In this document: positions 607 to 52,350 of the stretch, one piece after another
How the letters are laid out: the number at the start of each line of letters is the position of its first letter
Position numbering within the stretch: the first letter of the stretch is position 1
From: an uncultured Actinomycetota bacterium
Lineage (GTDB): Bacteria > Actinomycetota > Actinomycetes > Actinomycetales > CAWJMD01
DNA: 64,000 nt
Reading direction: 5' to 3'
Assembly: GCA_963700925.1 (NCBI GenBank)
Contig: OY969553.1
Span: forward strand, 1,983,695 to 2,047,694
Translations under genes and position numbers: made by a program
The notes under the pieces: model-generated
What the model saw: only the letters and a program-made list of their open reading frames with translations
What the model was told of the DNA's origin: nothing
The model's database searches: none

Positions 607-1674
607 GTGACTGGTCTTGCGTCCAAGAGGGTGGCACCAACGCGTGTGGCGCCCGCGACAGCGGCGTCCGACGTGGTGGATGTGCGGACGGACGACGACG
701 TCCCGTCCCGGCAGCGGTACGAGGGCGAGCTGGAGCAGCATCGCCGTGAGCTCACGGGCTACTGCTACCGGATGCTCGGCTCGGCGTTCGATGCCGAGGA
801 CGCCGTCCAGGAGACGATGGTCCGGGCCTGGCGCGCACTCGACCGCTTCGACGGGCGCGCCTCTCTGCGGTCATGGCTGTACCGCATCGCCACCAACGTG
901 TGCTTCGACTCGCTGAGCGGTACCAAGCGCCGGGCCATGCCGATGGACCTGTCCGAGAACCCGTCGCCGCCCGTCAGCGCGTCCCTCGGCGTGCCCCTGA
1001 CGGAGAGGACGTGGATCGAGCCGATGCCCGACGGGCGGGTGCTGCCCGAGATCAGCGACCCCGCCGACGTGGCCGTGGGGCGTGAGACCGTGCGGCTCGC
1101 CTTCGTGGCCGCCCTTCAGCACCTGCCGGCTCGGCAGCGGGCCGTCCTGATCCTGCGAGAGGTGTTGCGCTGGAAGGCGAGTGAGGTTGCCGAGCTGCTC
1201 GACACCAGCGTCGCGTCGGTCAACAGCGCGCTGCAGCGTGCACGCGCCACGCTCTCGTCCGACGAGCTGACGCTGGCCGGCAGCGCACCCAACGCCCTCG
1301 ACGAGGAGCACGCGGCTCTACTGGCCCGTTACGTCGAGGCCTTCGAGGCGTACGACATCGACTCCTTGGTGGCGCTGCTGCACGAGGACGCCACTCAGTC
1401 GATGCCGCCGTACGCGCTCTGGCTCAGCGGCCCCGTCGACATCGGACGCTGGCACCTCGGCCCGGGCGGCGGATGCCGTGGCTCGCGCCTGCTGCCCGTG
1501 ATGGCGAACGGCACGACCGGGCTGGCCCAGTACAAGCCCGCTCCGGACGGGCAGCTCAAGCCGTGGGGCATCCACATGCTGCAGTTCTCAGAGGGGCGGG
1601 TCATCGGGATCACGAACTTCCTCGACACCAGCCTGTTCGAGCTGTTCGGCCTCCCTGACCACCTCGACCCCTGA
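607..1674 (+). CDS. sigG: ECF sigma-70 factor with C-terminal SnoaL-like domain (SigG/ECF56-like)
   Basis: HRRELTGYCYRMLGS..DAEDAVQET..RAWR, WLYRIATNVC, LPARQRAVLILREVL, SnoaL tail; AGGAGG upstream of GTG 607. Confidence 0.88.
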   Translation: MTGLASKRVAPTRVAPATAASDVVDVRTDDDVPSRQRYEGELEQHRRELTGYCYRMLGSAFDAEDAVQETMVRAWRALDRFDGRASLRSWLYRIATNVCFDSLSGTKRRAMPMDLSENPSPPVSASLGVPLTERTWIEPMPDGRVLPEISDPADVAVGRETVRLAFVAALQHLPARQRAVLILREVLRWKASEVAELLDTSVASVNSALQRARATLSSDELTLAGSAPNALDEEHAALLARYVEAFEAYDIDSLVALLHEDATQSMPPYALWLSGPVDIGRWHLGPGGGCRGSRLLPVMANGTTGLAQYKPAPDGQLKPWGIHMLQFSEGRVIGITNFLDTSLFELFGLPDHLDP

Positions 1675-1977
1675 CCCTTGCGCCGGGGCCGGACGCACCG
1701 GCACCACGTCGGACAGGCCCGTCAGCCCGAGCAACGACTGAAGGTGCTGGCTCGCGCCGCGCAGCACGACCTGCGATCCGCTGCGCCGAGCCGCCAGCTG
1801 CAGGCGCGCCAGGCCATCCACCACCACGGCGTCCGGACGGCTGAGGCGGGCGACGTCGCAGACGACCTCGTGCGACGTCCCCTCGGTGGAGAAGTTCTGG
1901 GCCACGTTCGAGCACACCCATGCCACGTCGTCCCGGGAGAACGAGCCCTCGAACATGAGGAGGAGCATCCTCGTCAC
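1588..1977 (-). CDS. STAS-domain protein (anti-anti-sigma-like)
   Basis: VVCDVARL..PDAVVVDGLARLQLAARRSG..VVLRGAS..LQSLLGLTGL; AGGAGG 6 nt before GTG at 1977; overlaps the sigma 3' end. Confidence 0.8.
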   Translation of the reverse strand: MTRMLLLMFEGSFSRDDVAWVCSNVAQNFSTEGTSHEVVCDVARLSRPDAVVVDGLARLQLAARRSGSQVVLRGASQHLQSLLGLTGLSDVVPVRPAPAQGSGVEVVREAEQLEQAGVEEVRDPDDPPL

Positions 1978-2027
1978 GCCGGACCTCCTGGTGTGTGCGC
2001 CGCCCGAATCGGTATCTCCAGAGTGAA

Positions 2028-2054
2028 GACCCCGCCGAGCTGCCGAAGTCATCG
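2028..2054 (-). promoter_or_regulatory. Putative SigG-type promoter CGATGA-N18-GTC for the STAS gene
   Basis: Minus strand CGATGA cttcggcagctcggcggg GTC. Confidence 0.65.
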
Positions 2055-2105
2055 CCGCGGCTTCACCCTTCGGCCCGACGACTGAGATAAGCCGACTACG
2101 GAGAG

Positions 2106-2864
2106 TCACACTGGACGATGAGGCGTGAGCGCTGCCTCGTCCATGCCGAGCTGGTCGACGAGGTTTCGCCTCCCGTCCGGTGTCACACGAACGGCGCGGG
2201 GCCGCGACGTCCGCTCGACCCAGCCGAGCACCAGGAAGCGCTCGCACAGCGCTGCCGGCGCGGAGCCTGCGAGGTGCTGGCGTCGCTCGGTCCAGTCGAG
2301 ACACCCGCGTAGCACCGGACGGCGCGAGGCGGTGACACGGCTGACGTCCACGCCGATCTCGTCCAGCCATTCCAGTCCCGAGCGGGTCAGGGCGAGGCCG
2401 CCGCTGTCGTCGACGAATCCCTTGGCGCACAGGCTGTCTCGCAGTGCGACCCCGAGGCGACCGGCCAGGTGGTCGTAGCACGTGCGCGCCTCGGCGAGGG
2501 AGGACGATGCGGAGACCGTCCGCAGCGAGGTGGGTCGGGTCCCCGGCGATGCCTGGGCGCCCAGCTCCTCGATCAACCCTGCAGCCCGGGCGTCAGCGAG
2601 GCGCAGGTAGCGGTGCCTGCCCTGCTTCTCCCGCACCAGCAGGCCACCGTCCATCAGCCGGTCGACGTGGGCGGTCGCCGTCGACGGGGCCACCCCGGCC
2701 GTCCGAGCCAGCTCGCCCGCCGTCCACGTGCGTCCGTCGAGGAGAGCGAGGCACATGGTCGCCCGCGTCTCGTCGGCCAGCAGGGCCGCGAGGCGCGCCA
2801 GCGAGCGTCCATCGGCAGCGGGCCTGGCGCCGCGGGCTGCGGGGCAGGGAGGGCACGGCGTCAC
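2106..2864 (-). CDS. ArsR/SmtB-family winged-helix regulator (long type)
   Basis: LADETRATMCLALLDGRTWTAGELAR..GVAPSTATAH, ARTCYDHLAGRLG, CLDWTERR; GTGA coupling to upstream gene. Confidence 0.85.
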   Translation of the reverse strand: MTPCPPCPAARGARPAADGRSLARLAALLADETRATMCLALLDGRTWTAGELARTAGVAPSTATAHVDRLMDGGLLVREKQGRHRYLRLADARAAGLIEELGAQASPGTRPTSLRTVSASSSLAEARTCYDHLAGRLGVALRDSLCAKGFVDDSGGLALTRSGLEWLDEIGVDVSRVTASRRPVLRGCLDWTERRQHLAGSAPAALCERFLVLGWVERTSRPRAVRVTPDGRRNLVDQLGMDEAALTPHRPV

Positions 2865-3817
2865 GGACGTGAACGACGGCGCGAGATCGCCACACCGACC
2901 AGGCAGACCGCGCCGCCGACGACGGCCAGAGACGCCGGCACCTCGCCCAGCAGCGCCCAGCCGCCCAGCACGGTCAGCGGCGGCACCAGGTACGTGGACG
3001 CCCCGAGGCGACCGGCGCTGCTGCGCGCCAGCGCGTAGGCCCAGGTGGTGAAGGCGACCGCGGTCGGCATCACGCCGAGGTAGACGACCCAGGCCAGCGC
3101 CGACGGCGGCGCCACCGTCAGGTCGTGCACGAGGTCGGGCGCCGCGGGCAGCGTGCAGACGGCGCCGATCGTGCAGGCGATCCACGTGACCTGGAGCGCC
3201 GGAAGCGTTCGCAGCAGCGGCTTCTGGGCGACGACGCCGATCGCGTAGGTGACCGCGGCGACGACGCACAGCAGCACGCCCCACAGGTCGGCGTCCCCGG
3301 TCGACGACGCGGCACCGATCACCAGCACTCCCGCGAAAGCCACTCCGCTGCCGACTACGAGCGGGCGCGGAAAGCCCTCACCCAGCATGAGGCCCGCGAG
3401 CAGCGCGATGAGCAGCGGACCGATGTTGACGAGCATCGCCGCGGTGCCGGCATCCAGGCGCTGTTCGGCCGCGTTCAGCGCGACGTTGTAGACGGCGAAC
3501 CATGAGACGCCGCAGATGACCAGCCGTGGCCAGTGCTGCCGCGCCGGCCACGCGTGGCGTCGCACCAGCAGCAGCCCACCGAGCACCGCGCTGGCGACCG
3601 CGAGCCGTCCCAGCGTCAGTGGCCCGGGCGACACGTGGTCACCGAGATGCCGGATCGCCACGAACGCGGACGCCCACAGCAGCACCGTGACAAGGATCGC
3701 GAGCACGGGGAGCACGCCGCCGGCGTGGGGCCCCGAGCTCTCAGACTGCCCCGAGCCATCAGGCTGGGAGGTCCCGTCCGTGCTGCCCGCTGGGGTTGGT
3801 TCCGCTGTCGTGGTCAT
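2861..3817 (-). CDS. DMT/EamA-family transporter
   Basis: LLWASAFVAIR, two EamA halves, LLGEVP near the C-terminus. Confidence 0.88.
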   Translation of the reverse strand: MTTTAEPTPAGSTDGTSQPDGSGQSESSGPHAGGVLPVLAILVTVLLWASAFVAIRHLGDHVSPGPLTLGRLAVASAVLGGLLLVRRHAWPARQHWPRLVICGVSWFAVYNVALNAAEQRLDAGTAAMLVNIGPLLIALLAGLMLGEGFPRPLVVGSGVAFAGVLVIGAASSTGDADLWGVLLCVVAAVTYAIGVVAQKPLLRTLPALQVTWIACTIGAVCTLPAAPDLVHDLTVAPPSALAWVVYLGVMPTAVAFTTWAYALARSSAGRLGASTYLVPPLTVLGGWALLGEVPASLAVVGGAVCLVGVAISRRRSRP

Positions 3818-3928
3818 GGTGATGGAACGTAGAAGGGCGACGTTTCGTGAGGGACCGAAGCGTTCGTGCGGACGGGAGGCGGTAGGCGCGTCCTGGCTTC
3901 TGCGCATCCCGTCCGAGACCATGCGGGT

Positions 3929-4465
3929 GTGAGCACGGAGCGAATGGCGGACGGCAAGGGCGAGGAGCCCGACGAAACGGGAGACGGCGACGTCCCACGC
4001 CCGGCCACGCTCGACCTGGACTCAGCCTCCCCGGACGAACCGGTTGCCGAGGAAGGGTGGGACCCACAGCTCGTGGCCGCAGCAGGAACGGCAGCCGCCG
4101 GCGTTGCCGCGCTGATCGGCGCCCTGGCTCTCGCGGTCGCCGCCAACGCGGCAGCGCAGCAGCCGTGCGTGTTTCCGGACGACGTCTACAGCGGGGACGG
4201 ATGGCCCCGCTCGGCTGCGATCGTCGCCTGCCTGTCTGTCGCTGCTGCGGCTCTCGGAGTGGCTGGCCTCCAGACCGGCCGCCGCGTCAGGGCCGCGATG
4301 CAGATCTCAGTGAGCCTGGCCGCGCTGCTGCTTGCCGGCGCGGCACTCGCCCTGGCCATGGGCGACGCAGTCACGCGTCCTCACTTCGACCTCGAGCCGT
4401 CCAACAGCATCGGTGTTTCGGAGCGCTACAACGAGTTCGGGATGCCGCTGGTCGAGTGCCGCTGA
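3929..4465 (+). CDS. Hypothetical membrane protein
   Basis: Acidic N-terminus and three hydrophobic segments; fills the gap between genes; start uncertain (3929/3944). Confidence 0.5.
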   Translation: MSTERMADGKGEEPDETGDGDVPRPATLDLDSASPDEPVAEEGWDPQLVAAAGTAAAGVAALIGALALAVAANAAAQQPCVFPDDVYSGDGWPRSAAIVACLSVAAAALGVAGLQTGRRVRAAMQISVSLAALLLAGAALALAMGDAVTRPHFDLEPSNSIGVSERYNEFGMPLVECR

Positions 4466-4508
4466 CTCGGCGCACACAGCGCGGACCGCCCTCACGGCCC
4501 GACGCGTG

Positions 4509-4910
4509 TCAGACCTCGTCTCGACGACGCCTGCTGACGAGGAGCAGAGTCGCACCGGATCCCAGCAGCAATGTCGCCACCACGCTGCCCAGCGCGAACT
4601 CAGCGCCTGTGCGCGCCAGCCGCGTTGAGCGGGTCGGGTCTCTGCCCTCACCGCGCGGGTCCTCGCGGGCCACAACGCCTTGCAGGACACGGCCCGAGTC
4701 GCCGTCGTCGTTGTTGCTCGTCGAGTCTTCGACGGTCGGCGTCGACACGGTTGCACTGTTCGACACGGTGGACCCCACTGCGGCGTCCACACTCGTCACG
4801 CTGCTGATCACCGAGGTGGCGCCGGCAGCGAGATCCGTGCTGCGCGTGCACGTCACGGTGGACCCGCTGGGCGAGCAGACGAACCCGCCACCTGCAGCGC
4901 TGACGAAGGT
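4509..4910 (-). pseudogene. C-terminal remnant of a DUF11-like, LAXTG sortase-anchored surface protein
   Basis: TFVSAAGGGFVCS..GSTVTCT..LAAGATS..VSNSATVS..D..NN, then LARTG + TM + RRRR; no signal peptide upstream. Confidence 0.65.
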
Positions 4911-5093
4911 CCTCGACGTCGAGGCGCACCCGAGGTACGCAGCAGGTGGGCCGAGCGGAGCGACAGCGCAGGTCAGAGCGCATGGAGACTTCCCCGTGAG
5001 TGACAAGGGGGGCTTCTCCGAGTCGGCACCTTTGACCCCCAACTGTGCGGAAAACGGCCAGGAGTCCTACGAGCCACCGGATACCGTCTGCCC

Positions 5094-6041
5094 GTGACCG
5101 TCCCTGCGTACGCCGACGTCGAGGCCGCGAGGCAGCGGTTGGACTGGGTGACGCGCCGGGTTGCCGTCTCCCACGTCGAGGCCGGCTCCCTCACGGAGAG
5201 CGAGGTCTGGCTGGCGCACGAGTACCTGCAGCACACCGGCTCGTTCAAGGCCCGAGGCGCGCTGAACTTCGTCACCGACGCCGCCGAGCGCGGCGCGCTG
5301 GACCGTGGCGTGGTCATCGCCTCGGGTGGCAACGCCGGACTCGCGTGCGCGTGGGCCGCACGTGAGAAGGGCGCTACTGCAACGGTCTTCGTCCCAGAGA
5401 CGGCGCCGGACGTCAAGGTCCAGAGGCTGCATCATCTAGGAGCCGATGTACGTCAGGTGGGTGCCGACTACCACGAGGCGTCCACTGCGGCAGCGGCCCA
5501 CGCCGCCCAGACGGGAGCCCTGCAGTCACACGCCTACGATCACCCACTCATCGCTGCCGGGGCCGGCACGTTGCTGCACGAGGCCGTCGAGGACATGCCC
5601 GAACCGCCCAGGACCGTCGTCGTCGCGGTCGGTGGTGGCGGGCTGTTCACGGGGACGGCCGTGACCGCGCTCGAGCACGGCATCCGCGTCGTCACCTCGG
5701 AACCCGACGGGTGCCGGGCCCTGAACGCCGCACTGGAGGCGGGCGGGCCGGTTGACGTGCCGGTCGCCTCGATAGCGGCCGACTCCCTGGGCGCCCGGCG
5801 CTGCTCGGCGATGGCCTACCAGGCGGCCCGCCGCCAGGACGTCGTGTCGGTCACCGTCACCGACGACCAGATCGTGGCTGCGCGCCGGGCGCTCTGGGAC
5901 GAGTGTCGCGTCGTGGTGGAGCACGGTGCGGCGACCGCCCTCGCCGCCGTCGCATCCGGTGCCTACCGCCCTGAGCTGGGCGAGAACGTGCTCGTCGTGC
6001 TGTGCGGCGCCAACACGGACCCCGGCGACCTGCTCTCCTGA
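5094..6041 (+). CDS. PLP-dependent threonine/serine dehydratase
   Basis: EYLQHTGSFKARGA, ASGGNAG, VGGGGL, LCGAN. Confidence 0.9.
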   Translation: MTVPAYADVEAARQRLDWVTRRVAVSHVEAGSLTESEVWLAHEYLQHTGSFKARGALNFVTDAAERGALDRGVVIASGGNAGLACAWAAREKGATATVFVPETAPDVKVQRLHHLGADVRQVGADYHEASTAAAAHAAQTGALQSHAYDHPLIAAGAGTLLHEAVEDMPEPPRTVVVAVGGGGLFTGTAVTALEHGIRVVTSEPDGCRALNAALEAGGPVDVPVASIAADSLGARRCSAMAYQAARRQDVVSVTVTDDQIVAARRALWDECRVVVEHGAATALAAVASGAYRPELGENVLVVLCGANTDPGDLLS

Positions 6042-6067
6042 GACCTGAACCCTGGGACGCTCGTGGG

Positions 6068-6520
6068 GTGAGCGACGACGGCCCGTACGGCGACCTGGAG
6101 GTCACGCGCACCCTCGCGGTCCCGTCCAGGCTGCTGCAGTGGCGGTTCTCGCGGTCCTCCGGGCCCGGCGGTCAGGGCGTCAACACCGCCGACTCGCGCG
6201 CCGAGCTCTCGCTCGACCTCGGCACCCTGCAGGCGGCGGCGGACGGCTGGCCCGAGGCGTTGGTCGACACCGTGCGACGCCGCCTCGCCGACCGGTTGGT
6301 CGACGACACGCTCACGGTGTCGGCGTCCGAACACCGCCAGCAGCTGCGCAACCGTCAAGCGGCACGGGTGCGGATGGCTGCCCTGCTGCGGGAGGCGACA
6401 GCGCCTGCCGGTCCGAGGCGACGCCCGACCCGCCCGAGTGCGGGCGCCCGTCAGCGGCGGCTGGACGACAAGAAGCGCCGCTCCCGGCTCAAGCAGGCGC
6501 GTCGCCGGGACACCGACTGA
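6068..6520 (+). CDS. arfB: Alternative ribosome-rescue peptidyl-tRNA hydrolase ArfB
   Basis: FSRSSGPGGQGVN, ASEHRQQLRNR, basic tail RRPTRPS..RRLDDKKRRS. Confidence 0.93.
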   Translation: MSDDGPYGDLEVTRTLAVPSRLLQWRFSRSSGPGGQGVNTADSRAELSLDLGTLQAAADGWPEALVDTVRRRLADRLVDDTLTVSASEHRQQLRNRQAARVRMAALLREATAPAGPRRRPTRPSAGARQRRLDDKKRRSRLKQARRRDTD

Positions 6521-6553
6521 GATCGACTCGTGCTGAGCGCAATTGACACGGGC

Positions 6554-6988
6554 TCAGCCGGCCGCGAGCAGGTCTGTCAGGAGCCGCTTGAGCTCGGCGT
6601 GTCCGTCGGGGCCGAGGATCTCGTCGATCCGCTCCTCGATGCCCTGGATGGTCGAGATCCCCGCGGCGATGCACTCGCTCCCGCGCGGAGTGAGCACGAT
6701 CAGCTTCGCGCGGCGGTCGGTCGGGTCGGGATGCCGCTCGACGTAGCCCAGCTCCTCCAGCTCGTCGACCAGCTCCCCCATCGCCTGGGGTGACATGTTC
6801 GCGCCGCGAGCCAGCTCGGTGAGGCGGTTCCCGTCCCGGCCGATCTGGGCGAACACAGCGGAGTGCGACGGCTTCTGCGGGAACCCCGCGCCCACCACGC
6901 CGTCGACGATCTGGAACCCGAGCAGGCTGTAGGCGCGACCGAGCATCGCGATCGTGTTGTCCGCCTGCTGCTGAGGGTCTTGCTCCAT
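6554..6988 (-). CDS. MarR-family regulator
   Basis: LVDELEELGYVERHPDPTDRRAKLIVLTPRG. Confidence 0.9.
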   Translation of the reverse strand: MEQDPQQQADNTIAMLGRAYSLLGFQIVDGVVGAGFPQKPSHSAVFAQIGRDGNRLTELARGANMSPQAMGELVDELEELGYVERHPDPTDRRAKLIVLTPRGSECIAAGISTIQGIEERIDEILGPDGHAELKRLLTDLLAAG

Positions 6989-7000
6989 GAGAATTCCTTA

Positions 7001-7028
7001 AGGTATACCTGCTTATCAAGGCTACCTT
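7001..7028. promoter_or_regulatory. Putative MarR operator pair
   Basis: Palindromes AGGTATACCT (7001-7010) and AAGG-CTA-CCTT (7018-7028) in an AT-rich divergent intergenic region. Confidence 0.5.
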
Positions 7029-7063
7029 AGTAAGTTCAGGATCGCAGGGATGGAGACCCGCCG

Positions 7064-7723
7064 ATGACCACCCAAGTTCCTTCCGCAACCTCGGCACGCA
7101 CTGAGGAGATGGCCGTGATCCATCGCATCTTCCGGCGTGGCTTCCCGAAGATGGCCGAGCTGGTGCGCCAGGCCGCGGCCGGCGAGACCGCGCGCTCCGA
7201 GCCGATCGCCGCACACCTCGACTTCCTGCTGAACAGCCTCCACGCCCACCACACCACGGAGGACGAGCACATCTGGCCCCGACTGCTCGAACGCGCTGCG
7301 CCCCACGCGCAGCTGGTCACCCGGATGGAGACGCAGCACGAGGCGGTAGCAGAGCTCACGGAGCGGGTGCGCACGCTGTCGCAGACCTGGCGGCGGAGTC
7401 CCGGTAGCGGCGAGGACCTTGCCAGAGCGCTGGACGAGTTCACCTCCGCCCTCGTCGAGCACCTCGACGACGAGGAAGCCCACGTCGTTCCACTGATCCG
7501 TCAGCACATCACCGCCGACGAGTGGATGCGGTTCGGCGAGAAGGCTTTCGAGAAGTTCACCAACCCCGAGAAGCTCGTCGCCACGGGCGCGCTGGAGGAT
7601 GTCGCGACCCCCGAGGAAGCCGGGTGGTTCCTGGCCGACCTACCGCTCCCGATCAAGGTGATGTGGCGACTCGTCGGCCGGCGCAAGTACGACCGCTACA
7701 TCCGACGGGTTCACGGCACGTGA
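7064..7723 (+). CDS. Hemerythrin-domain protein
   Basis: IHRIFRR, LHAHHTTEDEHIWP, METQHE, EHLDDEE. Confidence 0.88.
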   Translation: MTTQVPSATSARTEEMAVIHRIFRRGFPKMAELVRQAAAGETARSEPIAAHLDFLLNSLHAHHTTEDEHIWPRLLERAAPHAQLVTRMETQHEAVAELTERVRTLSQTWRRSPGSGEDLARALDEFTSALVEHLDDEEAHVVPLIRQHITADEWMRFGEKAFEKFTNPEKLVATGALEDVATPEEAGWFLADLPLPIKVMWRLVGRRKYDRYIRRVHGT

Positions 7724-8100
7724 TGCTCCGGGTCGCCGCCGCCTTGTGCTGGGTCAACGCCGTCGGTTTCGGCGTGTTCACGATCCCGGCCATCGCGAGA
7801 GTCTCGGCCGGAAAGGACCTCCCGATCGTGATGGGCTTCCCGGCCTACGGACGGGGTCCGTTCGAGGCGCACGGCCTGCAGTCGACGGTGCCGTTGCTGA
7901 CCGGCTTCCTCGTCGTGTGCATCCTCGAGGGCGTCGCTGGGTGGCTGCTGTGGGGAGGACACCGCAGCGGCGCGATCCTTGCCCTGGCACTGCTTCCGGC
8001 CGGCGCCATCTACTGGTGGGGCTTCGCCCTGCCCATCCCACCGGTGTTCGCCCTCGTCCGCACGGTCCTGATCGTCGCTGGCTGGACCCAGCTTCGCTGA
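7723..8100 (+). CDS. Small membrane protein
   Basis: TGATG coupling to the hemerythrin gene; about 4 hydrophobic segments. Confidence 0.7.
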   Translation: MLRVAAALCWVNAVGFGVFTIPAIARVSAGKDLPIVMGFPAYGRGPFEAHGLQSTVPLLTGFLVVCILEGVAGWLLWGGHRSGAILALALLPAGAIYWWGFALPIPPVFALVRTVLIVAGWTQLR

Positions 8101-8125
8101 GCGCCGTCGCCGGCCCGTCCGGGCG

Positions 8126-9745: not shown

Positions 9746-9796
9746 GAGGAGAAGTCTGCCTCCGACCACCGACGTTCGCCGCCGCCAGCCGGGTGC

Positions 9797-10111
9797 TCAC
9801 TTCTCGAGGTTCACCTTCTCGGTGCCGTCCCCACCGCCGCCGCGGCCCTTCCCGACCTGGGACAGCGCGACCAGACCCGCGATGATCGCCAGCAGCAGGA
9901 ACTTGCCCGAGCCGAGCAGGAACGGGAGCCACTTCAGCCACCACGGTGGGTGCGGGACGTCGAACGGCCTGGAGAGCTGCAGGTCGAACGGCAGGTCGAT
10001 GTCAGGCAGCGGCATCCAGAGCACGACGGCGACGCCGAGCCCGACGAGAAGCACGACGGCCACCCCGGAGGCGACGGCACGAGCGACTGCGGCGGAGCGG
10101 TTCTCGGTCAT
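9797..10111 (-). CDS. Small hypothetical membrane protein
   Basis: Two hydrophobic segments with a Pro/Trp-rich linker. Confidence 0.6.
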   Translation of the reverse strand: MTENRSAAVARAVASGVAVVLLVGLGVAVVLWMPLPDIDLPFDLQLSRPFDVPHPPWWLKWLPFLLGSGKFLLLAIIAGLVALSQVGKGRGGGGDGTEKVNLEK

Positions 10112-10185
10112 CCCTCGACGCTACGGACACCAGACGGTCAGCACATCGGGCTCAGGAGCGGTCTCGCCCTACGACTCAGGGCGGA

Positions 10186-10206
10186 GGTGGACGGCCCCCG
10201 TCCACC
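10186..10206 (-). terminator. Possible hairpin downstream of the response regulator
   Basis: GGTGGACGG-ccc-CCGTCCACC, 9-bp stem. Confidence 0.35.
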
Positions 10207-10227
10207 GCTGGGAAAGGTCAACACCGC

Positions 10228-19598: not shown

Positions 19599-19703
19599 CG
19601 CGCGCGCAGCACCGGCAGGAAAGAACTGGGGCAGTGTCGGTGGCCGGGGCAAGAATGGTTTCGGCCGATCGGCAGCCACGCGCTCACCAGGAGGACACAG
19701 GTC

Positions 19704-40735: not shown

Positions 40736-40770
40736 AGACGCCTTCTCTGCCAGCCGATCTGCCGACCTCT

Positions 40771-42078: not shown

Positions 42079-42125
42079 GCGAGAGGCCCATCAACAACAG
42101 CAACAGCGCGGACGGGGGCGCCGGC

Positions 42126-45036: not shown

Positions 45037-45046
45037 GTACCGGCCG

Positions 45047-45071
45047 TAGGTGTTGTGGTGTCCGCACTGAC
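45047..45071 (+). promoter_or_regulatory. Putative LuxR-AAA activator site, copy 2
   Basis: TAGGTGTTG-tggtg-TCC-g-CACTGAC. Confidence 0.55.
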
Positions 45072-45168
45072 ACGACCATCGGCCGACCCGATGTGATGAC
45101 GGCGAGAGTGTTGTCGGTGTTGTCGGCGTTTCCGGTGATGTGTGGCGGAAACCGGTGAAAGGGTGACG

Positions 45169-46122
45169 ATGAGAGCGATCCAGATCTCCGAGTACGGCGG
45201 CCCCGAGGTCCTGCAGCCCGCTGAGCTGCCGGAACCGGAGGCCAAGCCGGGCTTCACGCTGGTCCGGGTCGCCGGCGCCGGCGTGAACTACGCCGACACG
45301 CACCAGGTCGAGAACTCCTACCTCAGCCCCACCACGCTGCCTCTCGTGCCCGGCGGCGAGGTCGTGGGCACGGCGCCTGACGGGCGTCGCGTCGTCGCGC
45401 TACTGCCTTTCGGCGGCTACGCGCAGCTCGCCACCGCCGCCGACTCGCTGGTCTTCGACGTCGACGACAAGGTCGACGACGGCCAAGCCCTCTCGCTGGT
45501 GCTGCAGGGCGTCACGGCGTGGCACCTGCTGCGGACCACCTGCCACCTGGAGAAGGGGGAGACGGTCGTCGTGCACGCGGGGGCCGGAGGGGTCGGGTCG
45601 ATCGCGGTGCAGCTGGCACGGCACTACGGCGCCGGACGGGTCATCGCCACCGCGTCCACACCCGCGAAGCGCGACCTGGCCATCGAGCTGGGCGCCGACG
45701 TCGCGATCGACGGCTCGCCGGAGGCTCTGCGCGACCGGCTGCTCGAGGCGGCGGGCGGTCGCGGTGTCGACGTGGTCCTGGAGATGGTCGGCGGCTCCGT
45801 GTTCGACGAGTCGGTTCGCGCGCTGGCACCGTTCGGGCGGCTGGCGACGTACGGCCAGGCATCGCGCAAGCCACCGTCGCTGGTCGACCCGGGGGGCCTG
45901 ATCGCCAAGTCGCGCACCGTCGGCGGGTTCTGGCTCGGGCATCTCTACGCGCGGCCGGACCTGATCGCCGAGCCACTGGGCGAGCTGATGGGGCTGGTGG
46001 TCGACGGCACGCTGCGGCCGGTCGTCGGCGGTCGGTACCCGCTCTCGCAGGCCCGGCGGGCGCACGAGGATCTCCTCGGCCGTGCCACCACGGGCAAGCT
46101 CGTCCTGGACCCAGAGGGCTGA
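45169..46122 (+). CDS. MDR-family NADPH:quinone oxidoreductase
   Basis: YGGPEVL, GVNYAD, HAGAGGVG, TTGKLVL. Confidence 0.92.
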   Translation: MRAIQISEYGGPEVLQPAELPEPEAKPGFTLVRVAGAGVNYADTHQVENSYLSPTTLPLVPGGEVVGTAPDGRRVVALLPFGGYAQLATAADSLVFDVDDKVDDGQALSLVLQGVTAWHLLRTTCHLEKGETVVVHAGAGGVGSIAVQLARHYGAGRVIATASTPAKRDLAIELGADVAIDGSPEALRDRLLEAAGGRGVDVVLEMVGGSVFDESVRALAPFGRLATYGQASRKPPSLVDPGGLIAKSRTVGGFWLGHLYARPDLIAEPLGELMGLVVDGTLRPVVGGRYPLSQARRAHEDLLGRATTGKLVLDPEG

Positions 46123-46127
46123 GACCC

Positions 46128-48008
46128 ATGAGCCAGACAGCAAGAGAGACACAGACCGCAAGCGAGCCACAGACAGCGAGGACCCTCGCCGACGCCGCCC
46201 TCGTCGCCGGTGCGTCCTTCGGCGACGACCCCGCGCTGCAGGTCAAGGTCGACGGCGAGTGGCGGCAGGAGTCGTTCGCCGAGCTGGCCGCCGCTGTGCG
46301 CGACCTGGCGGCCGGGTTGGTGCTGCAGGGCGTCCAGCCCGGAGACCGCGTCTGCGTGCTGGCGCAGACCCGGCCGGAGTGGACGAAGGTGGCGCTGGCC
46401 GTGCTGGCGGCCGGAGGGGTCGTCGTCCCGATCTACGCCTCCAGCTCACGGCAGGAGTGCGCCTGGGTGATCGGCAACTCGGGCGCCTCGCTCGTGGTCT
46501 GCGAGGGGGTGGACGAGGTCGAGCGCGTCGAGTCGCTGACCGACCTGCTCGAGATCGTGCCGCCGATCCTGGCCATGCAGGACTGTGACGGCGAGGCGGT
46601 CACCATCGCCGAGCTGGGACAACAGGGGGCAGACCAGGGGACAGACTCAGGCGCCGAGGAAGAGCTCGAGCGTCGTCGCGCGGCGGTCCAGGTCGACGAC
46701 CCGGCCGTCATCATCTACACCTCGGGGACGACCGGGCCGCCGAAGGGTTGCGTTCTGACACACCGCAACTGGATCCGGATCGGTGAGCTGACCGAGGAGC
46801 TCTCGTACATCCGCTACGGCGACGTCGTGTACCTGTTCCTGCCGCTCGCCCACGTCTTCGCGCAGATGGTGCAGTTCGCCAGCGTGAGCATCGGCGCGAC
46901 CCTCGTCTACTGGGGCGGCGACATGACGCGCATCGTCGCGGAGGTCGGCGAGGTCAGGCCGACGTTCCTGCCGTCCGTCCCCCGCATCTTCGAGAAGCTG
47001 CATGCGGCGATCACGGCCGGCCTGCCACCCGAGACGGTCGCGCAGGCGACCCAGGTGGGCCTGGCGGTCAGGTCGATGCAGCGGCGGGGCGATGAGGTCC
47101 CGGCCGAGACGTCGGCGGCCTTCGAGGCGCTGGAACCGTTGTACGCCAAGGTGCGTGGCATCTTCGGTGGCCGCCTGCGCCAGGCCCTGTGCGGCGGGGC
47201 ACCCATCTCCAAGGACGTGCTCGAGTTCTTCCACGCCGCCGGCGTGCCGGTGCTGGAGGGCTACGGGCTGACCGAGACCACTGGTATCGGCACGGTCAAC
47301 ACGGTCGACTCCTTCAAGGCCGGGAGCGTCGGGGTAGCCACGCCCGGCGTCGAGCTGCGCCTGATGCCGGACGGCGAGATCGAGATGAAGGGCCCCCACG
47401 TGTTCGCCGGCTACTGGGGCGACGCCGGTGCGACGGCCCACAGCGTCGTCGACGGCTGGCTGCGGACCGGCGACCTCGGCGTCGTCGACGACGACGGCTT
47501 CGTACGGATCGTGGGTCGCAGCAAGGACATCATCATCACGTCGGGTGGCAAGAACATCAGCCCGGCGAACCTCGAGAACGACCTCAGGCACTCGCCCTGG
47601 ATCTCGCAGGCGCTCGTGTACGGCGACCGCCGCCCCTACCTGGTGGCGCTGGTGACTCTGGACCCGGAGATGATCTCTGCCTGGGCCGCCGGGCACGGTG
47701 TCACCGCCGGGCCGGGCGGGCTCGCCGAGGCGCCGGAGGTTCGGGCGTTGGTCGAGCAGGTCGTCGAGCAGGTGAACGACCGTTACGCGCGCGCCGAGCA
47801 GATCAAGCGGTTCGCCATCTTGCCGCGCGACCTCTCCCAGGAGGACGGCGAGCTGACGCCGAGCCTGAAGGTGAAGCGCAAGGTCGTGCACGACCGGCAC
47901 CTCGACCTGATCTCGGCGCTCTACTCCGGTGCCGGCTCAGAAGGCGCCAGCCCTGAAGTCGCCCAGGCCGACGGTGTCGGTGCTGGGGTGGGCGCCGGCA
48001 CGCCGTAG
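46128..48008 (+). CDS. Long-chain fatty acid-CoA ligase
   Basis: YTSGTTGPPKG, EGYGLTET, RTGDLG, ELTPSLKVKR. Confidence 0.93.
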   Translation: MSQTARETQTASEPQTARTLADAALVAGASFGDDPALQVKVDGEWRQESFAELAAAVRDLAAGLVLQGVQPGDRVCVLAQTRPEWTKVALAVLAAGGVVVPIYASSSRQECAWVIGNSGASLVVCEGVDEVERVESLTDLLEIVPPILAMQDCDGEAVTIAELGQQGADQGTDSGAEEELERRRAAVQVDDPAVIIYTSGTTGPPKGCVLTHRNWIRIGELTEELSYIRYGDVVYLFLPLAHVFAQMVQFASVSIGATLVYWGGDMTRIVAEVGEVRPTFLPSVPRIFEKLHAAITAGLPPETVAQATQVGLAVRSMQRRGDEVPAETSAAFEALEPLYAKVRGIFGGRLRQALCGGAPISKDVLEFFHAAGVPVLEGYGLTETTGIGTVNTVDSFKAGSVGVATPGVELRLMPDGEIEMKGPHVFAGYWGDAGATAHSVVDGWLRTGDLGVVDDDGFVRIVGRSKDIIITSGGKNISPANLENDLRHSPWISQALVYGDRRPYLVALVTLDPEMISAWAAGHGVTAGPGGLAEAPEVRALVEQVVEQVNDRYARAEQIKRFAILPRDLSQEDGELTPSLKVKRKVVHDRHLDLISALYSGAGSEGASPEVAQADGVGAGVGAGTP

Positions 48009-48011
48009 CTG

Positions 48012-49187
48012 TCAGGCGAGAAGCTGGGCGTTGATGCGGCCCGGGAAGCGCACGCTGAACCGGGCGGACCCCAGCCAGGTCTGGACCTCGTCGAGTCGTC
48101 GGTCAACCTCGGCGCGCCGCTTCTTGGCCACGGGCACGAAGTAGTGGGTGCGCATCTCGCCGTCGGGTCGCCGCGCCCAGGCGCCGACCACCCGGCCGTC
48201 CACCCAGATCGTCGGCCCGGCGTTGCCGTTGCGGTCGAACGCGTCGGCCGCCTCGTCCGGCAGGTACCATCCGCGCTCCTTCCAGCCCATCGTCGTCGGG
48301 TCGAGGCCGGGCAGCACCTCGACCCACGGCTCGACCGGCTCGACGGGGGCCTCGTCACCGGCGGCGACCCACCCTTCGGCGCCGTCGAGGTCGACCGGGA
48401 CCGCGCCGCAGTCGGCGAGCGCCCGGCGCATCGTGACCACCGCCCAGCCCATCCACCACCGCAGGTCGAGCGACGTGGCAGGGCCGAACCGCCGCAGCCA
48501 CTGGTCGGCGAGGCCGCGCGCCGCTTCGCGCGTGTCGAGATCGCCCAGCCCACCGTCCATCCAGTCGTCCATCGCCGCCCACGTGTACTGGCCGTTCACC
48601 CACGTCCCGGTCGGACGGGTGCGCACCAGCACCCCGTCGAAGCCGAGCCCGGAGAGCACGCGGACGTGAGCGTTCTGCGTGCCCGCCCACGGCGTTCCCG
48701 TGGCGAGATGCAGGGGGTGGATCAGGGCTGGAACGAGGCGTCCGAGCTGCCTCGTGGTCATGGAGCCGTGTTCGTGCAAGACGGCGAGCAGGTCGTCTCG
48801 CGCAGCCGCGAGCCACGCATCACCGTCGTCAATGCCGTTCTCCTGCAACATCTTCACCGTGCGCCGGTGCTCGGCGGCGGCCACCGAGCGCGTGGCCGCT
48901 GCGTGCATCCGTCGCACGGTCGGCGGGGTGGCGACCCAGAGGGTGCGGCGCATGGCGTGCTGCCGCACCACGACGCGGTCGTCGTAGAGCGCCTTCTCGA
49001 CCGCGTGCACGGACGGGTTGACCATGCGCGTCATCGCCGAGAGGAACACGGTCACGGGGTCGCTGGAATGCAGGGCGACGAGATCGTCTGCGATCGCTCC
49101 GATGTCGTCGGTGTGAAGGGACGGCAGCAGCCGGTGCCGGCGCGCGAGCCGGGCCCGCCGCTCGTCGGTGTCGATCCGCCGGGTCAC
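48012..49187 (-). CDS. AlkZ-like (HTH_42) winged-helix DNA glycosylase-family protein
   Basis: LHSSDP, AMRRTL, WLRRFGPAT..DLRWW, LLP-type LDP..MGWKER, DGRVVG.W. Confidence 0.8.
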   Translation of the reverse strand: MTRRIDTDERRARLARRHRLLPSLHTDDIGAIADDLVALHSSDPVTVFLSAMTRMVNPSVHAVEKALYDDRVVVRQHAMRRTLWVATPPTVRRMHAAATRSVAAAEHRRTVKMLQENGIDDGDAWLAAARDDLLAVLHEHGSMTTRQLGRLVPALIHPLHLATGTPWAGTQNAHVRVLSGLGFDGVLVRTRPTGTWVNGQYTWAAMDDWMDGGLGDLDTREAARGLADQWLRRFGPATSLDLRWWMGWAVVTMRRALADCGAVPVDLDGAEGWVAAGDEAPVEPVEPWVEVLPGLDPTTMGWKERGWYLPDEAADAFDRNGNAGPTIWVDGRVVGAWARRPDGEMRTHYFVPVAKKRRAEVDRRLDEVQTWLGSARFSVRFPGRINAQLLA

Positions 49188-50533
49188 CGACCGGATTCTT
49201 GCAGCCGCGACGGCCGGATGTTCTGGTTCAGGTGGAAGACGTTCTCGGGGTCGTACGCGTCCTTCACCGCCGTGAGCCGCTCGAGCTTGCGCGGGGTGTA
49301 GGCACGTCCGATGCCGGCCACGCCCTCGTCGTTCAGGGCGTTGACGTAGGCGCCGGTCGCGAAGCGGTCGAGTCTCGCGGCGTGCCGCCTCGTGCCCCCG
49401 ATGCGGTCGTCGTCCTCGGCGGCGTCGGTCCAGCCGGTGGCAGCCACCACCTCGAAGGCGACGTCGCGGTGGCTGAAGGCCGTCGCGTCCGCCGGCACCT
49501 CGGCGATCGCCCCGCCATGGGCCTGCAGGCTGACGCGCGGCACGAAGGTGCCGGGCCCGGCGCCCGCTCCCTCACCGCCCAGCAGCACGTCGATCGCGTC
49601 GTCCGCCAGGTCACGCACGTAGATGCCCTTCCAGTACCTGCGCATCTCGTGACCGCGCTCCATGTCGTCGCGGGTCTGCAGGTCGACGTACGACGACTCG
49701 ACGACGCGCTCCGCGACCGGGCGTCCGAGCGCTCGCAGCGGCGGCAGCAGCTCGCGTCCGACGTCGGGGTCGCCGACCCACACGTAGCCGACGGTGACGA
49801 CGTCACCCTCGATGCCCGCGGCGAACGTCGCGGGGCGCGGGGCCGAGGAGTTCAGGTCGCCCCACCCCCGCAGTACCGGCGCGGCACGGTCGATCGGGAA
49901 GTCGAGCTCGACACTCAGCGTCTGCGGAGCGACCGGGTGCAGCCGGAACTCGAACTCGGTGACCACGCCGAAGTTGCCTCCTCCACCCCGCAAGGCCCAG
50001 TACAGGTCAGGGTGCTCAGACTCGCTGGCGCGCACCACGTCTCCCTCGGCGGTGACCACCTCGAACGAGATGACGTTGTCGCACGAGAGCCCGAACTGGC
50101 GCGCCAGCCAACCCATCCCGCCGCCGAGCGTGAGGCCGCCGACGCCCGTGTGGGACACGTTGCCGGCAGTGGTGGCGAGACCGTGCTCCTGGGAGGCGCG
50201 GTCGAGTGACCCGAGCATCGCGCCGCCCTGCACGCGTGCCCGTCGGCCCGCCGGGTCGACCTGGACGCCGCCCATCGGAGTCAGGTCGATCATCAGGCCG
50301 TCGTCGGGCACGGCGTGCCCCACCACGCTGTGGCCTCCGCACCGGATGCCGATCTCGAGGTCGGCCTCGCGCGCGGTGCGGATGGCTGTGACGACGTCTC
50401 GCACGCTGGCGCAGCGGAAGATCTGCCGCGGGCGCCGGTCGATCATGGCGTTCCAGATCGTTCGGGCGTCGTCGTAGCCCTCGTCGCCGGGACGCAGGAC
50501 CGTGCCGTCGATCTGCTGGGTGACCTCGCTCAT
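49184..50533 (-). CDS. FAD-binding oxidoreductase (BBE/VAO type)
   Basis: RCGGHS, TGVGGLTLGGG, WALRGGGGNFGVV, YDPENVFHLNQNI. Confidence 0.92.
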   Translation of the reverse strand: MSEVTQQIDGTVLRPGDEGYDDARTIWNAMIDRRPRQIFRCASVRDVVTAIRTAREADLEIGIRCGGHSVVGHAVPDDGLMIDLTPMGGVQVDPAGRRARVQGGAMLGSLDRASQEHGLATTAGNVSHTGVGGLTLGGGMGWLARQFGLSCDNVISFEVVTAEGDVVRASESEHPDLYWALRGGGGNFGVVTEFEFRLHPVAPQTLSVELDFPIDRAAPVLRGWGDLNSSAPRPATFAAGIEGDVVTVGYVWVGDPDVGRELLPPLRALGRPVAERVVESSYVDLQTRDDMERGHEMRRYWKGIYVRDLADDAIDVLLGGEGAGAGPGTFVPRVSLQAHGGAIAEVPADATAFSHRDVAFEVVAATGWTDAAEDDDRIGGTRRHAARLDRFATGAYVNALNDEGVAGIGRAYTPRKLERLTAVKDAYDPENVFHLNQNIRPSRLQESGR

Positions 50534-50583
50534 CAGGTGGGCTCCTTCACTCGTGTCCCGCATGCTGCCTCGCTGCACCGACA

Positions 50584-50614
50584 GGCAGACCCGTCGCGTG
50601 GCGCGAACTCATCG
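50584..50614 (-). promoter_or_regulatory. Putative SigG-type promoter for the FAD oxidoreductase
   Basis: CGATGA gttcgcgccacgcgacgg GTCTGCC (N18). Confidence 0.65.
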
Positions 50615-50632
50615 CCCGGACCGGACCGTGGC

Positions 50633-51067
50633 TCATTCGGACCTCCCGTCGACCGAGGCGACGAGCCGCTCGAGGGTCTTGAGGAACGCCTGGCGCTCGG
50701 TGGCGGGGAGGTCACGCAACACCTCGCGCTCCATCGCCCGGATGGCCGCCCGGCAGGCCGACAGCTGCGAGCGCCCGGCGTCGGTGAGGGCGACCACGCG
50801 GTTGCGCCGGTCGGCTGGGTCTGGCGTGCGCAGCACCAGGCCGCTTGCCTCGAGCCGGTCGAGGATGGGGATGAGTCGCGTCTTGTCGCGCCCGACGGCC
50901 GCCGCGAGCTGCGACTGGGTGGCTGCCGGGCCTGACGCGAGGCCGGAGAGCACGGCGTAGTCCCACATCTCCAGGTCGTGCCGGGCCAGCAGGGGCAACT
51001 CCTCGGCGATCAGTGCGCGCGTCAGCCGGTGCAGCATCGCCCCCAGGTCGGCGCGGTCCTGGCCCAT
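50633..51067 (-). CDS. MarR-family regulator
   Basis: TQSQLA..VGRDKTRL, PDPADRRNRVVALTDAG. Confidence 0.9.
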   Translation of the reverse strand: MGQDRADLGAMLHRLTRALIAEELPLLARHDLEMWDYAVLSGLASGPAATQSQLAAAVGRDKTRLIPILDRLEASGLVLRTPDPADRRNRVVALTDAGRSQLSACRAAIRAMEREVLRDLPATERQAFLKTLERLVASVDGRSE

Positions 51068-51083
51068 GGACGAACCGTACCCC

Positions 51084-51112
51084 TTGACCAATCGTCTACC
51101 AAGGTAGATGGT
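51084..51112. promoter_or_regulatory. Putative MarR operator/promoter
   Basis: TTGACC at 51084; dyad TCTACC-AA-GGTAGA at 51095-51108. Confidence 0.55.
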
Positions 51113-51118
51113 TAACAG

Positions 51119-51736
51119 ATGGAGACGACAACAGACCTACGCCCGCTGCATCGTCGCGCACTCGAGATGGCCGGAGCCGTTGTCTCGGAGGTGGAGTCGC
51201 GGCACCTCAGGCTGGCGACGCCCTGCGTCGGCTGGGACCTGCACCAGCTGCTCGGCCACATCATCGGCCAGAACCACGGCTTCGCCGATGCGGTGGGCGC
51301 GGTGGACGCGCCGCGCGAGGCCTTCGCCGACCGGCGGCCCGCTCCGGACGGCGTGCCCGAAGCATGGACCGAGTCGGCCGAGAAGCTGTCCGCCGCGTTC
51401 GAGGCCGCTCCCTTGGACCGCCAGGTCGTCCTCGCCGAGTTCAGCTTCGAATCCCGCTTCCCTGTGTCGGACGTCGTCGGGTTCCACCTGCTCGACACCG
51501 TGGTGCACGGGTGGGACGTCGCCACCGCCCTCGACCACCCCTTTCACCCCGACGACGACATGGTCGCCGAGACCCTCAAGGTGGCACGGCTCATCCCGGA
51601 CGGACGGCACCGTGAGCTGCCCGGGTCCCCGTTCGGCATCGTGATCCCGACTGCCGTCTCCGAGGCGGAGGAGACCGGGGACGACTGGGCCCTCGCGCTG
51701 GCCCTGCTCGGCCGTCACCTGACCTCGACCGACTGA
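51119..51736 (+). CDS. TIGR03086-like DinB/mycothiol-dependent isomerase-family protein
   Basis: TPCVGWDL.QLLGH, DTVVHGWDVA, ALLGR. Confidence 0.88.
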   Translation: METTTDLRPLHRRALEMAGAVVSEVESRHLRLATPCVGWDLHQLLGHIIGQNHGFADAVGAVDAPREAFADRRPAPDGVPEAWTESAEKLSAAFEAAPLDRQVVLAEFSFESRFPVSDVVGFHLLDTVVHGWDVATALDHPFHPDDDMVAETLKVARLIPDGRHRELPGSPFGIVIPTAVSEAEETGDDWALALALLGRHLTSTD

Positions 51737-51776
51737 TCCGCCGACTGATCCGCCGACTGATCCGCGGACTGACCCG
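51729..51776. repeat. 4 x 12-bp tandem repeat starting at the stop codon
   Basis: ccgactgatccg x3 + cggactgacccg. Confidence 0.9.
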
Positions 51777-51807
51777 CGCGCGAGCACTCAGCGGTCGTTC
51801 TCGCGCG

Positions 51808-52314
51808 TCAGTCGGCCAGCCGGAAGGCGAGCACGGTCTCCCACTTCTCCAGCTCGGACTCCTCGCTCGGGTCGGTCTCGTACTGCTCGATGCGGCACGC
51901 CCAGCGCCGTCCCTTGGGGGTGTCGGCCACGTCCCAGGTCAAGCCCTGCTCGGCGGCCCAGGTCATGATCGAGTCGCTCGCGCCGAGCAGTCCGTCGGGG
52001 TGCCCGACGTGGGTCAGCGTGACGTAGCGGCCGGCTGGCAGGACGCCGGAGAACACATCGCCGTCCCCGTCCACAGAGACAGAGACGGGAACGCCAGCCT
52101 CGACCTCCACCTCGTCCTCCATGTCGATGAGGTTGTACTTGAGGAACGGTGCACCGGCGGGCTCGACTCCGCGCTCGGAGAGCCAGCCGAACAGCTCGCC
52201 GAACCGGTCGGCGACCTCGCCGATGGTCTTCATCGTGACGGTCCCCTTGACCGCTACGTAGGGCTGTTCGTCTCGCTCGACGATGCTGGGCTCAGGGTGC
52301 CTAGATGTGTTCAT
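51808..52314 (-). CDS. GyrI-like small-molecule-binding protein
   Basis: ER.EQPYV, GAPFLKY, LPAGRY..H.GHP, E.YETDP, WET.LAF. Confidence 0.88.
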   Translation of the reverse strand: MNTSRHPEPSIVERDEQPYVAVKGTVTMKTIGEVADRFGELFGWLSERGVEPAGAPFLKYNLIDMEDEVEVEAGVPVSVSVDGDGDVFSGVLPAGRYVTLTHVGHPDGLLGASDSIMTWAAEQGLTWDVADTPKGRRWACRIEQYETDPSEESELEKWETVLAFRLAD

Positions 52315-52319
52315 TCCAG

Positions 52320-52350
52320 GGCAGACGGCTCGGGCACGAGAAACTCATCG
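52320..52350 (-). promoter_or_regulatory. Putative SigG-type promoter for the GyrI-like gene (probably leaderless)
   Basis: CGATGA gtttctcgtgcccgagcc GTCTGCC, 5 nt before the ATG. Confidence 0.65.

Follow-up and report, generated by a model that had tools for sequence, protein, structure and literature searches.

The closest described relatives of the locus analyzed here are the SigG-type systems of mycobacteria and streptomycetes. For SigG (Rv0182c) of Mycobacterium tuberculosis, the transcription start site of the target Rv0887c was mapped, and the sequence CGATGA(N18)GTCNNTA was proposed as the promoter motif (Gaudion 2013, PMC3776920). In Streptomyces venezuelae, a truncated extracytoplasmic function (ECF) sigma factor of the ECF56 family was over-expressed, and the text of that study describes the sequence CGATGAGTT-N14-GGTC in front of the genes that were induced, its recurrence throughout Actinobacteria upstream of genes for glyoxalases, dihydrofolate-reductase-like proteins and alpha/beta-hydrolases, and a conserved MPP(F/Y/L) motif that follows the sigma-4 domain in ECF56 proteins (Thompson 2020, 10.1101/2020.01.30.927608). 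Here we examine a stretch of 64 kb (hereafter the window) from the genome of an uncultured Actinomycetota bacterium (contig OY969553.1, positions 1,983,695 to 2,047,694), which contains an ECF56 sigma factor gene and three sites of the form CGATGA-N18-GTC. The sequences at and around these sites make it probable that they belong to the ECF56 (SigG) class of promoters, and the sigma factor encoded at 607 to 1674 is the one with which RNA polymerase most likely reads them. The relevant features, numbered from the first letter of the window, are as follows.

607 to 1674, plus strand: ECF56 (SigG-type) sigma factor gene, 355 amino acids from GTG 607; the longest open reading frame (ORF) starts at 529.
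1588 to 1977, minus strand: STAS-domain gene, 129 amino acids; PF13466 (STAS_2), 41 bits; start GTG 1977 or ATG 1968.
2028 to 2054, minus strand: putative ECF56-type promoter with a variant -35 word, CGATGACTT-N15-GTC, 50 nt 5′ of the STAS GTG start.
48012 to 49187, minus strand: gene for an AlkZ-like DNA glycosylase; PF06224, 183.5 bits.
49184 to 50533, minus strand: gene for a FAD-linked oxidoreductase, 449 amino acids, first gene of a probable operon; Pfam FAD_binding_4 and BBE.
50588 to 50614, minus strand: putative ECF56-type promoter with the exact consensus, CGATGAGTT-N15-GTC, 54 nt 5′ of the oxidoreductase ATG.
51808 to 52314, minus strand: gene for a GyrI-like small-molecule-binding protein, 168 amino acids; PF06445, 61 bits.
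52324 to 52350, minus strand: putative ECF56-type promoter with the exact consensus, CGATGAGTT-N15-GTC; the GyrI-like ATG lies 9 nt past GTC.

The protein encoded at 607 to 1674 is a bona fide member of the ECF56/TIGR02960 family. It scores 399.3 bits against TIGR02960 (cut-off 264.75) and 444 bits against NF006089 (cut-off 240) of NCBIfam, and its Pfam domains are Sigma70_r2 (79.5 bits), Sigma70_r4_2 (55.4 bits) and, at residues 240 to 332, a SnoaL_2 tail (PF12680, 28.2 bits, cut-off 27). Past the sigma-4 domain it carries the MPPY motif (SMPPYALW in the translation), of which M231, P232 and P233 are invariant in an alignment of 62 sequences. The preliminary description of this stretch, made from the sequence alone, had named a SigG-like, SnoaL-tailed ECF sigma factor at this position, and these matches bear it out. 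M. tuberculosis SigG likewise belongs to TIGR02960 and has both the SnoaL_2 tail and MPPY. The promoters of the two systems are also alike, wherein the CGATGA word is followed by GTC after 18 nt and the targets include small detoxification-type enzymes, and the resemblance to the mycobacterial SigG promoter that had been noted in the preliminary description is confirmed by the published motif (PMC3776920). Unlike the sigma gene of the window, however, M. tuberculosis sigG is reported to form an operon with two downstream genes (PMC3776920). The regulon reported for SVEN_4562 of S. venezuelae shares with that of the present genome an identical extended motif, dihydrofolate-reductase-like (RibD_C) targets and many targets of unknown function; it is backed by RNA-seq and reporter evidence, whereas the window promoters are predicted from sequence. 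Our reading of the sites as SigG-type follows from the fact that their motif equals the experimental consensus of both M. tuberculosis SigG and SVEN_4562, and that the target families match those reported.

A scan of the window finds exactly three matches to CGATGA-N18-GTC, all on the minus strand, all outside coding sequence, and each oriented in the sense direction 5′ of a gene. These are the sites that had been placed upstream of the STAS, FAD oxidoreductase and GyrI-like genes in the preliminary description, whose coordinates 50584 and 52320 differ from 50588 and 52324 by including the TGCC that follows GTC at both places. The -35 word CGATGAGTT is exact at 50606 to 50614 and at 52342 to 52350, and the STAS site carries CGATGACTT, with one mismatch. 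All three sites keep the same spacing of 15 nt to GTC, which corresponds to 18 nt from CGATGA. The longer word said to be common to the last two sites is indeed present as CGATGAGTT...GTCTGCC, and equals the published ECF56 consensus.

This extended motif is distributed in the genome in a strongly spacing-dependent manner. Eight exact copies of CGATGAGTT-N15-GTC occur in the 4.65-Mb genome, as compared with zero or one at any of the other spacers between N9 and N21, such that half of the 16 genomic CGATGAGTT words have GTC at exactly N15. Likewise, CGATGACTT-N15-GTC is found four times, versus 0, 0, 0 and 1 times at the same-phase spacers N9, N12, N18 and N21. Each of these 12 sites lies 5′ of an ORF in sense orientation, and 11 are located in stretches that hold no open coding-like frame; the remaining one, at 4451495, is overlapped by an open frame in antisense orientation. 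This classification of sites relies on local frame tests, as the gene finder based on third-position G+C content (GC3) gave only a coarse annotation, with 3456 genes and 81% coverage, in which the STAS gene was not called. At three of the exact genomic sites, including that of the GyrI-like gene, an ATG is positioned exactly 9 nt past GTC, which suggests that the corresponding mRNAs are leaderless.

Thus, at least 12 predicted ECF56-type promoters are scattered across the genome, and three of them are inside the window. The eight exact CGATGAGTT sites precede two MDMPI_N/DinB-like genes and the genes for the FAD/BBE oxidase, the GyrI-like protein, a DUF899 protein, a DrrA-like ABC ATPase, a YCII protein and a RibD_C protein. 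The four CGATGACTT sites precede two RibD_C genes, the STAS gene and a BNR/sortilin-like gene. Weaker variants of the motif stand before one further RibD_C gene and an MFS transporter gene. Moreover, 27 of the 52 genomic sites with the short motif CGATGA-N18-GTC look intergenic and 18 of these 27 have an ORF start within 90 nt, and therefore the figure of 12 is a minimum. Three of 12 sites in a single stretch of 64 kb is a mild cluster, and the regulon is not the local one that had been proposed in the preliminary description. ECF56 regulons with this repertoire of targets have been reported before, and the repertoire suggests that the regulon responds to small molecules that are toxic or genotoxic. 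The presence of the oxidase/AlkZ-like operon and the GyrI-like gene among the targets fits the connection that has been reported between SigG and agents that damage DNA. The predicted targets, at least 12 in number, make a clean list for testing; as the promoter class and the type of regulon are already known, they mainly provide the annotation of another genome.

To relate the sites to the sigma factor, we compared 41 related genomes, which are kin rather than independent samples, and counted as homologs of the window sigma factor all matches with an E value of at most 1e-40. The 20 genomes that have a homolog contain 86 exact sites, with at least one site in 16 of them, versus 12 exact sites, at most two per genome, in the 21 genomes that lack one. 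A reversed pattern used as a control gave no match in any of the 41 genomes. In eight genomes the only sigma match is 58 to 76% identical to the window sigma factor, and six of these hold three to six exact sites. This comparative evidence supports the window sigma factor as the reader of the sites, short of proof. The earlier proposal that this sigma factor drives a detoxification regulon including these genes is therefore strengthened in its first part, the link between sigma factor and promoter, whereas the detoxification role is suggested by domain families.

In the mechanism that we consider most probable, RNA polymerase with the ECF56 sigma factor would recognize CGATGA(G/C)TT as the -35 element and GTC, 15 nt later, as the -10 element, and transcription would probably start about 8 to 11 nt past GTC. 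The SnoaL_2 tail of the sigma factor is thought to gate its activity. That this sigma factor reads the sites, where transcription begins and which physiological role results are points that we infer from sequence features. The promoters in the window would drive the STAS gene, a two-gene operon of the oxidase and AlkZ-like genes, and a leaderless GyrI-like gene. The STAS start codon GTG 1977 is preceded by a GGAGG box, and the oxidase ATG at 50533 by GAAGGAG. The GTG start of the AlkZ-like gene overlaps the oxidase stop codon (GTGA), and the two genes are probably co-transcribed and translationally coupled; the second promoter thus probably serves both. The mRNA of the GyrI-like gene is probably leaderless, given the 9 nt between GTC and ATG 52314. 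The oxidase, for which NCBIfam yields sub-threshold matches only, has an ortholog of 65% identity in the related genome G013, where the exact motif is found just upstream (C27:2488-2514), and FAD/BBE genes follow the motif at five further sites that adjoin the sigma gene in other genomes.

Several observations weigh against this account. The short motif on its own is at background frequency: its three occurrences in the window compare with 1.07 expected, and 10 of 100 shuffled sequences contain three or more; its 52 genomic occurrences compare with 38 to 58 at spacers of the same codon phase. A genome-wide scan therefore supports the extended form CGATGAGTT-N15-GTC, and not the short motif as it was originally put forward. 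None of the three sites has the NNTA with which the M. tuberculosis motif ends. No CGATGA-N18-GTC lies 5′ of the sigma gene in the window, whereas the motif is found directly 5′ of the sigma gene in G032:C1 and at 13 sites among the 80 STAS loci described below. Four of the homolog-bearing genomes (G009, G022, G025 and G038) have no exact site. The target genes are also unevenly conserved. The AlkZ-like gene is not beside the oxidase ortholog of G013 (no tblastn match), and the sole GyrI-like homolog in 40 relatives (G025, 41% identity) has neither the exact motif nor any of three one-mismatch forms. Both genomes of the same genus lack orthologs of the oxidase, GyrI-like and STAS genes, and thus these three are accessory targets.

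The background frequency of the short motif would also be expected if any of the three sites, and in particular the CGATGACTT site of the STAS gene, were chance matches devoid of promoter function. One-mismatch forms of the extended motif are nearly as common at control spacers of the same phase (13 to 17) as at the native spacer (19), and the 50-nt leader of the window STAS site sets it apart from most STAS loci. Nevertheless, we regard a chance match as very improbable, as each of the four CGATGACTT-N15-GTC sites has an intergenic appearance and stands before an ORF, and two of these ORFs encode RibD_C proteins, a typical target family. Furthermore, the motif precedes STAS homologs elsewhere in 74 of the best 80 loci, in eight of nine loci of the genus g33, and in G013 and G036, and C is found as the seventh base of the motif, as in the window, at four of the 74 sites. 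A different possibility is that promoters of the ECF56 type are present but are read, alone or redundantly with the window sigma factor, by a second TIGR02960 protein encoded at G000:C1:1099515-1100462 of the same genome. This paralog scores 353 bits, above the family cut-off, and has the same three domains (sigma-2, sigma-4 and SnoaL_2), so it could read the same sites. It is only 41% identical to the window sigma factor, however. Its sequence reads SYPQ where the window sigma factor has MPPY, and the conserved GCRGS cysteine is missing. In the recognition helix of sigma-4, it also departs from the window sigma factor at several positions that show little or no variation in 62 orthologs of the latter. 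No motif occurs within 1.5 kb of the paralog gene, and the exact sites retained by six of the eight genomes with a single, window-like sigma match argue in the same direction. We therefore consider that assignment unlikely.

For the oxidase/AlkZ-like operon, control could lie mainly with other regulators, either the MarR protein encoded upstream or a DNA-damage promoter of the PafBC type, wherein the ECF56 motif would contribute little. The MarR gene ends 18 nt before the oxidase motif, and positions 50562 to 50583 match TGTCRGTG-N8-TANNNT with one mismatch. We take TGTCRGTG-N8-TANNNT to be a RecA-NDp-like promoter word. Its exact form is enriched in the genome at N8, with 15 copies versus zero or one at other spacers, and several of these copies precede near-identical genes. 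In contrast, the relaxed form that fits 50562 to 50583 shows no enrichment (46 at N8, versus 47 at N5 and 38 at N11), and G013 retains the ECF56 motif in front of its oxidase gene. We judge it quite unlikely that the ECF56 motif is the minor element here, and dual control would be compatible with transcription by the ECF56 sigma factor.

The match at 50562 to 50583 (TGTCGGTG-N8-CAGCAT, minus strand) is located between the GTC of the ECF56 motif and the oxidase ATG, and the operon may thus have an additional promoter that responds to DNA damage. Two more one-mismatch matches of this kind are present in the window, at 19635 to 19656 on the plus strand and at 61339 to 61360 on the minus strand. 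These three compare with 0.54 expected, and none of 100 shuffled sequences reached three.

The STAS gene converges on the sigma gene, and the two ORFs share 87 nt at their 3′ ends. To examine this arrangement elsewhere, we searched a species-level genome collection with a query alignment of three STAS sequences, which yielded 293 relatives, of which the best 80 loci were examined. The ranking of these 80 favors overlapping pairs, as the query held the 37-residue STAS tail encoded antisense to the conserved C-terminus of the sigma factor; the query did not include the promoter motif. The best 80 loci come from Actinomycetota, Chloroflexota and Dormibacterota-type metagenome-assembled genomes (MAGs) and from one Actinoplanes. 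A homolog of the window sigma factor (more than 100 bits, 59 to 71% identical) is encoded nearby in 76 of these loci, and is both convergent and adjacent in 68. CGATGA-N18-GTC occurs within 260 nt 5′ of the STAS match in 74 of the 80, and 48 of the 74 carry CGATGAGTT. The seventh base of the motif is G at 56 of these sites, A at nine, T at five and C at four, and the consensus derived from STAS-locus sites is CGATGAgTTtc...cgGTCt. The first STAS start codon lies 6 to 12 nt past GTC, mostly 9 to 10 nt, in 50 of the 72 loci where this distance could be measured, and most STAS mRNAs would thus be leaderless, with the window copy and its leader in the minority. The overlap between the STAS and sigma ORF ends has two preferred values, about 90 nt, near the 87 nt of the window copy, and 4 nt.

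Two further checks do not share this preference for overlapping pairs. In a sample of 401 genomes from the phylum, 103 have a sigma match at E 1e-60 or better. When loci were ordered solely by sigma similarity, a convergent STAS gene (detected with a query without the tail) was present in 18 of the best 29, with the exact short motif in 13 of the 18; when seven loci from unpublished genomes are set aside, the corresponding figures are 13 of 22 and nine. A STAS profile run against the 401 genomes matches 53 of the 103 that have the sigma factor and none of the 298 that do not (lists compared by hand), or 46 of 94 sigma-bearing genomes without the unpublished ones. Of 54 STAS matches in total, 50 have a listed sigma match on the other strand no more than 100 nt away, two are within 1 kb, and two are on contigs that have no listed sigma match. 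The association also varies among lineages. In genus g33, whose genomes are 7 to 10 Mb in size, a convergent STAS gene is present in all nine loci and the exact extended motif in eight of them. In family f26, whose sigma factors are 45 to 54% identical to that of the window, none of the nine genomes gave a match to the STAS subfamily; this family is presumably mycobacterial, which is a guess. Among the order-level relatives, the STAS gene is restricted to the present genome, G013 and G036 (three of 41), and the motif lies upstream of it in G013 and G036. The pairing is therefore one-way, wherein the STAS subfamily is found only with the sigma factor and about half of the sigma-bearing genomes have no STAS gene.

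The 80 STAS loci contain 174 short-motif sites that have sufficient sequence downstream. The gene that follows is the STAS gene at 74 sites, a DHA2-type MFS gene at 38, the sigma gene at 13, a RibD_C gene at eight, a FAD/BBE oxidase gene at five, a BNR-like gene at four, an MMPL gene at three, a VOC gene at one, and another gene at 28. These counts indicate that the neighborhood of the sigma gene is packed with its own promoters, and that the oxidase and BNR-like genes are recurrent targets. The DHA2-type MFS gene is present in 69 of the 80 loci; in the present genome it is found at G000:C1:2942406, behind a AGATGAGTT variant of the motif. In G003 and the genus g5, the gene that converges on the sigma gene is not a STAS gene but an ORF of 98 to 99 residues that has no Pfam match and is leaderless behind the ECF56 motif, with GTG 8 nt past GTC. 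The same genomes have a motif-bearing alpha/beta hydrolase gene 5′ of the sigma gene on the same strand, an arrangement that suggests autoregulation through an operon.

The fold of the STAS protein is supported by its PF13466 match and by an AlphaFold2 model (pLDDT, the predicted local distance difference test, 88), whose best Foldseek matches are the anti-sigma-factor antagonists 4hyl, SpoIIAA (1th8_B) and RsbV (6m36), together with MlaB. The TM-scores are 0.73 to 0.75 to 4hyl, 1th8_B and 1tid_B, and 0.65 to MlaB (7ch7_E). Despite this likeness to SpoIIAA/RsbV, sequence identity is 12 to 25%, and the protein differs from these antagonists in its fixed place beside an ECF sigma factor instead of one of group 3, with no partner kinase or anti-sigma gene among its named conserved neighbors. 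Clustering of the ORFs of the 80 loci, with the ten largest groups named, revealed no kinase-like or anti-sigma group among the conserved neighbors; the named groups include the sigma factor, STAS, MFS, RibD_C, ABC-2 permease, FAD/BBE, VOC, MMPL and BNR-like proteins. In an alignment of 62 STAS sequences, Cys22 and Cys40 are nearly invariant and PDAVTVDALARLQL forms a conserved block. The residue past the conserved Asp54 is alanine in nearly all 62, at a position that may correspond to that of the phosphorylated serine of SpoIIAA. A predicted complex of sigma residues 36 to 355 with STAS residues 1 to 100 scored 0.00 in both runs, which gives no verdict either way.

A precedent for a protein partner that acts beside a SnoaL_2 tail is provided by SigG1-RsfG of S. 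tsukubaensis (PMC7730460), where the product of a small gene next to an ECF56 sigma gene is reported to bind the sigma factor. The rsfG gene is described as downstream on the same strand, co-transcribed and without a Pfam domain, whereas the STAS gene of the window is convergent and encodes a STAS fold. The 2022 review (PMC8999054) presents the activation of ECF56 sigma factors as a question still open. The STAS-ECF56 pairing is not mentioned in the available text of the SigG1-RsfG paper (PMC7730460), of the Nucleic Acids Research 2021 reclassification of ECF sigma factors, or of the 2022 review (PMC8999054); the text of Thompson 2020 (10.1101/2020.01.30.927608) likewise names neither STAS nor the neighbors of SVEN_4562, and its target table and supplements could record the pairing.

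We tentatively suggest that the STAS protein might be a dedicated partner of ECF56 sigma factors in an ancient two-gene module, wherein the sigma factor would activate a STAS gene, leaderless in most cases, whose transcription proceeds in antisense into the sigma 3′ end, and the module would feed back on sigma activity, although we consider this less likely than not. Feedback could be exerted by binding of the STAS protein to the sigma factor or to its SnoaL_2 gate, and Cys22 and Cys40 might serve as a thiol sensor for electrophiles. Alternatively, the convergent antisense transcript itself could provide the feedback. The absence of the STAS gene from about half of the sigma-bearing genomes, both same-genus relatives included, counts against an essential role. 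Nonetheless, a gene that is found only with the sigma factor, tail-to-tail from Streptomyces-sized genomes to Chloroflexota MAGs and behind the promoter of that sigma factor, is a candidate for the missing regulatory partner or for one arm of an antisense feedback loop.

Upstream of the sigma gene and on the same strand, an HNH-domain gene of 471 codons begins outside the window (G000:C1:1982645) and ends at 366. An exact TGTCGGTG-N8-TACCGT precedes it at G000:C1:1982617, which we presume to be a DNA-damage promoter word of the RecA-NDp/PafBC type. The letters of that motif were not found in the available text of PMC6789036. A scan of 300 to 2200 for sigma-70 promoters and terminators found none, and no terminator-like site is present between the HNH gene and the sigma gene. 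Read-through from the HNH gene could place the sigma gene under induction by DNA damage, which has been reported for sigG of M. tuberculosis. At 393 to 467, within the 240 nt that separate the two genes, CGCAC is repeated in tandem about 15 times (72% matches).

About 9 kb past the end of the window, a CGGTGAGTT-N15-GTC variant (G000:C1:2056400-2057400) precedes a short-chain-dehydrogenase-like gene whose N- and C-terminal parts are in different frames, owing to a frameshift or a sequencing error. Finally, the interval between the second and third promoters is occupied by the MarR gene (50633 to 51091) and a divergent DinB/MDMPI-like gene (51119 to 51736), separated by 27 nt; the latter has no ECF56 motif, whereas two MDMPI_N genes elsewhere in the genome carry it.

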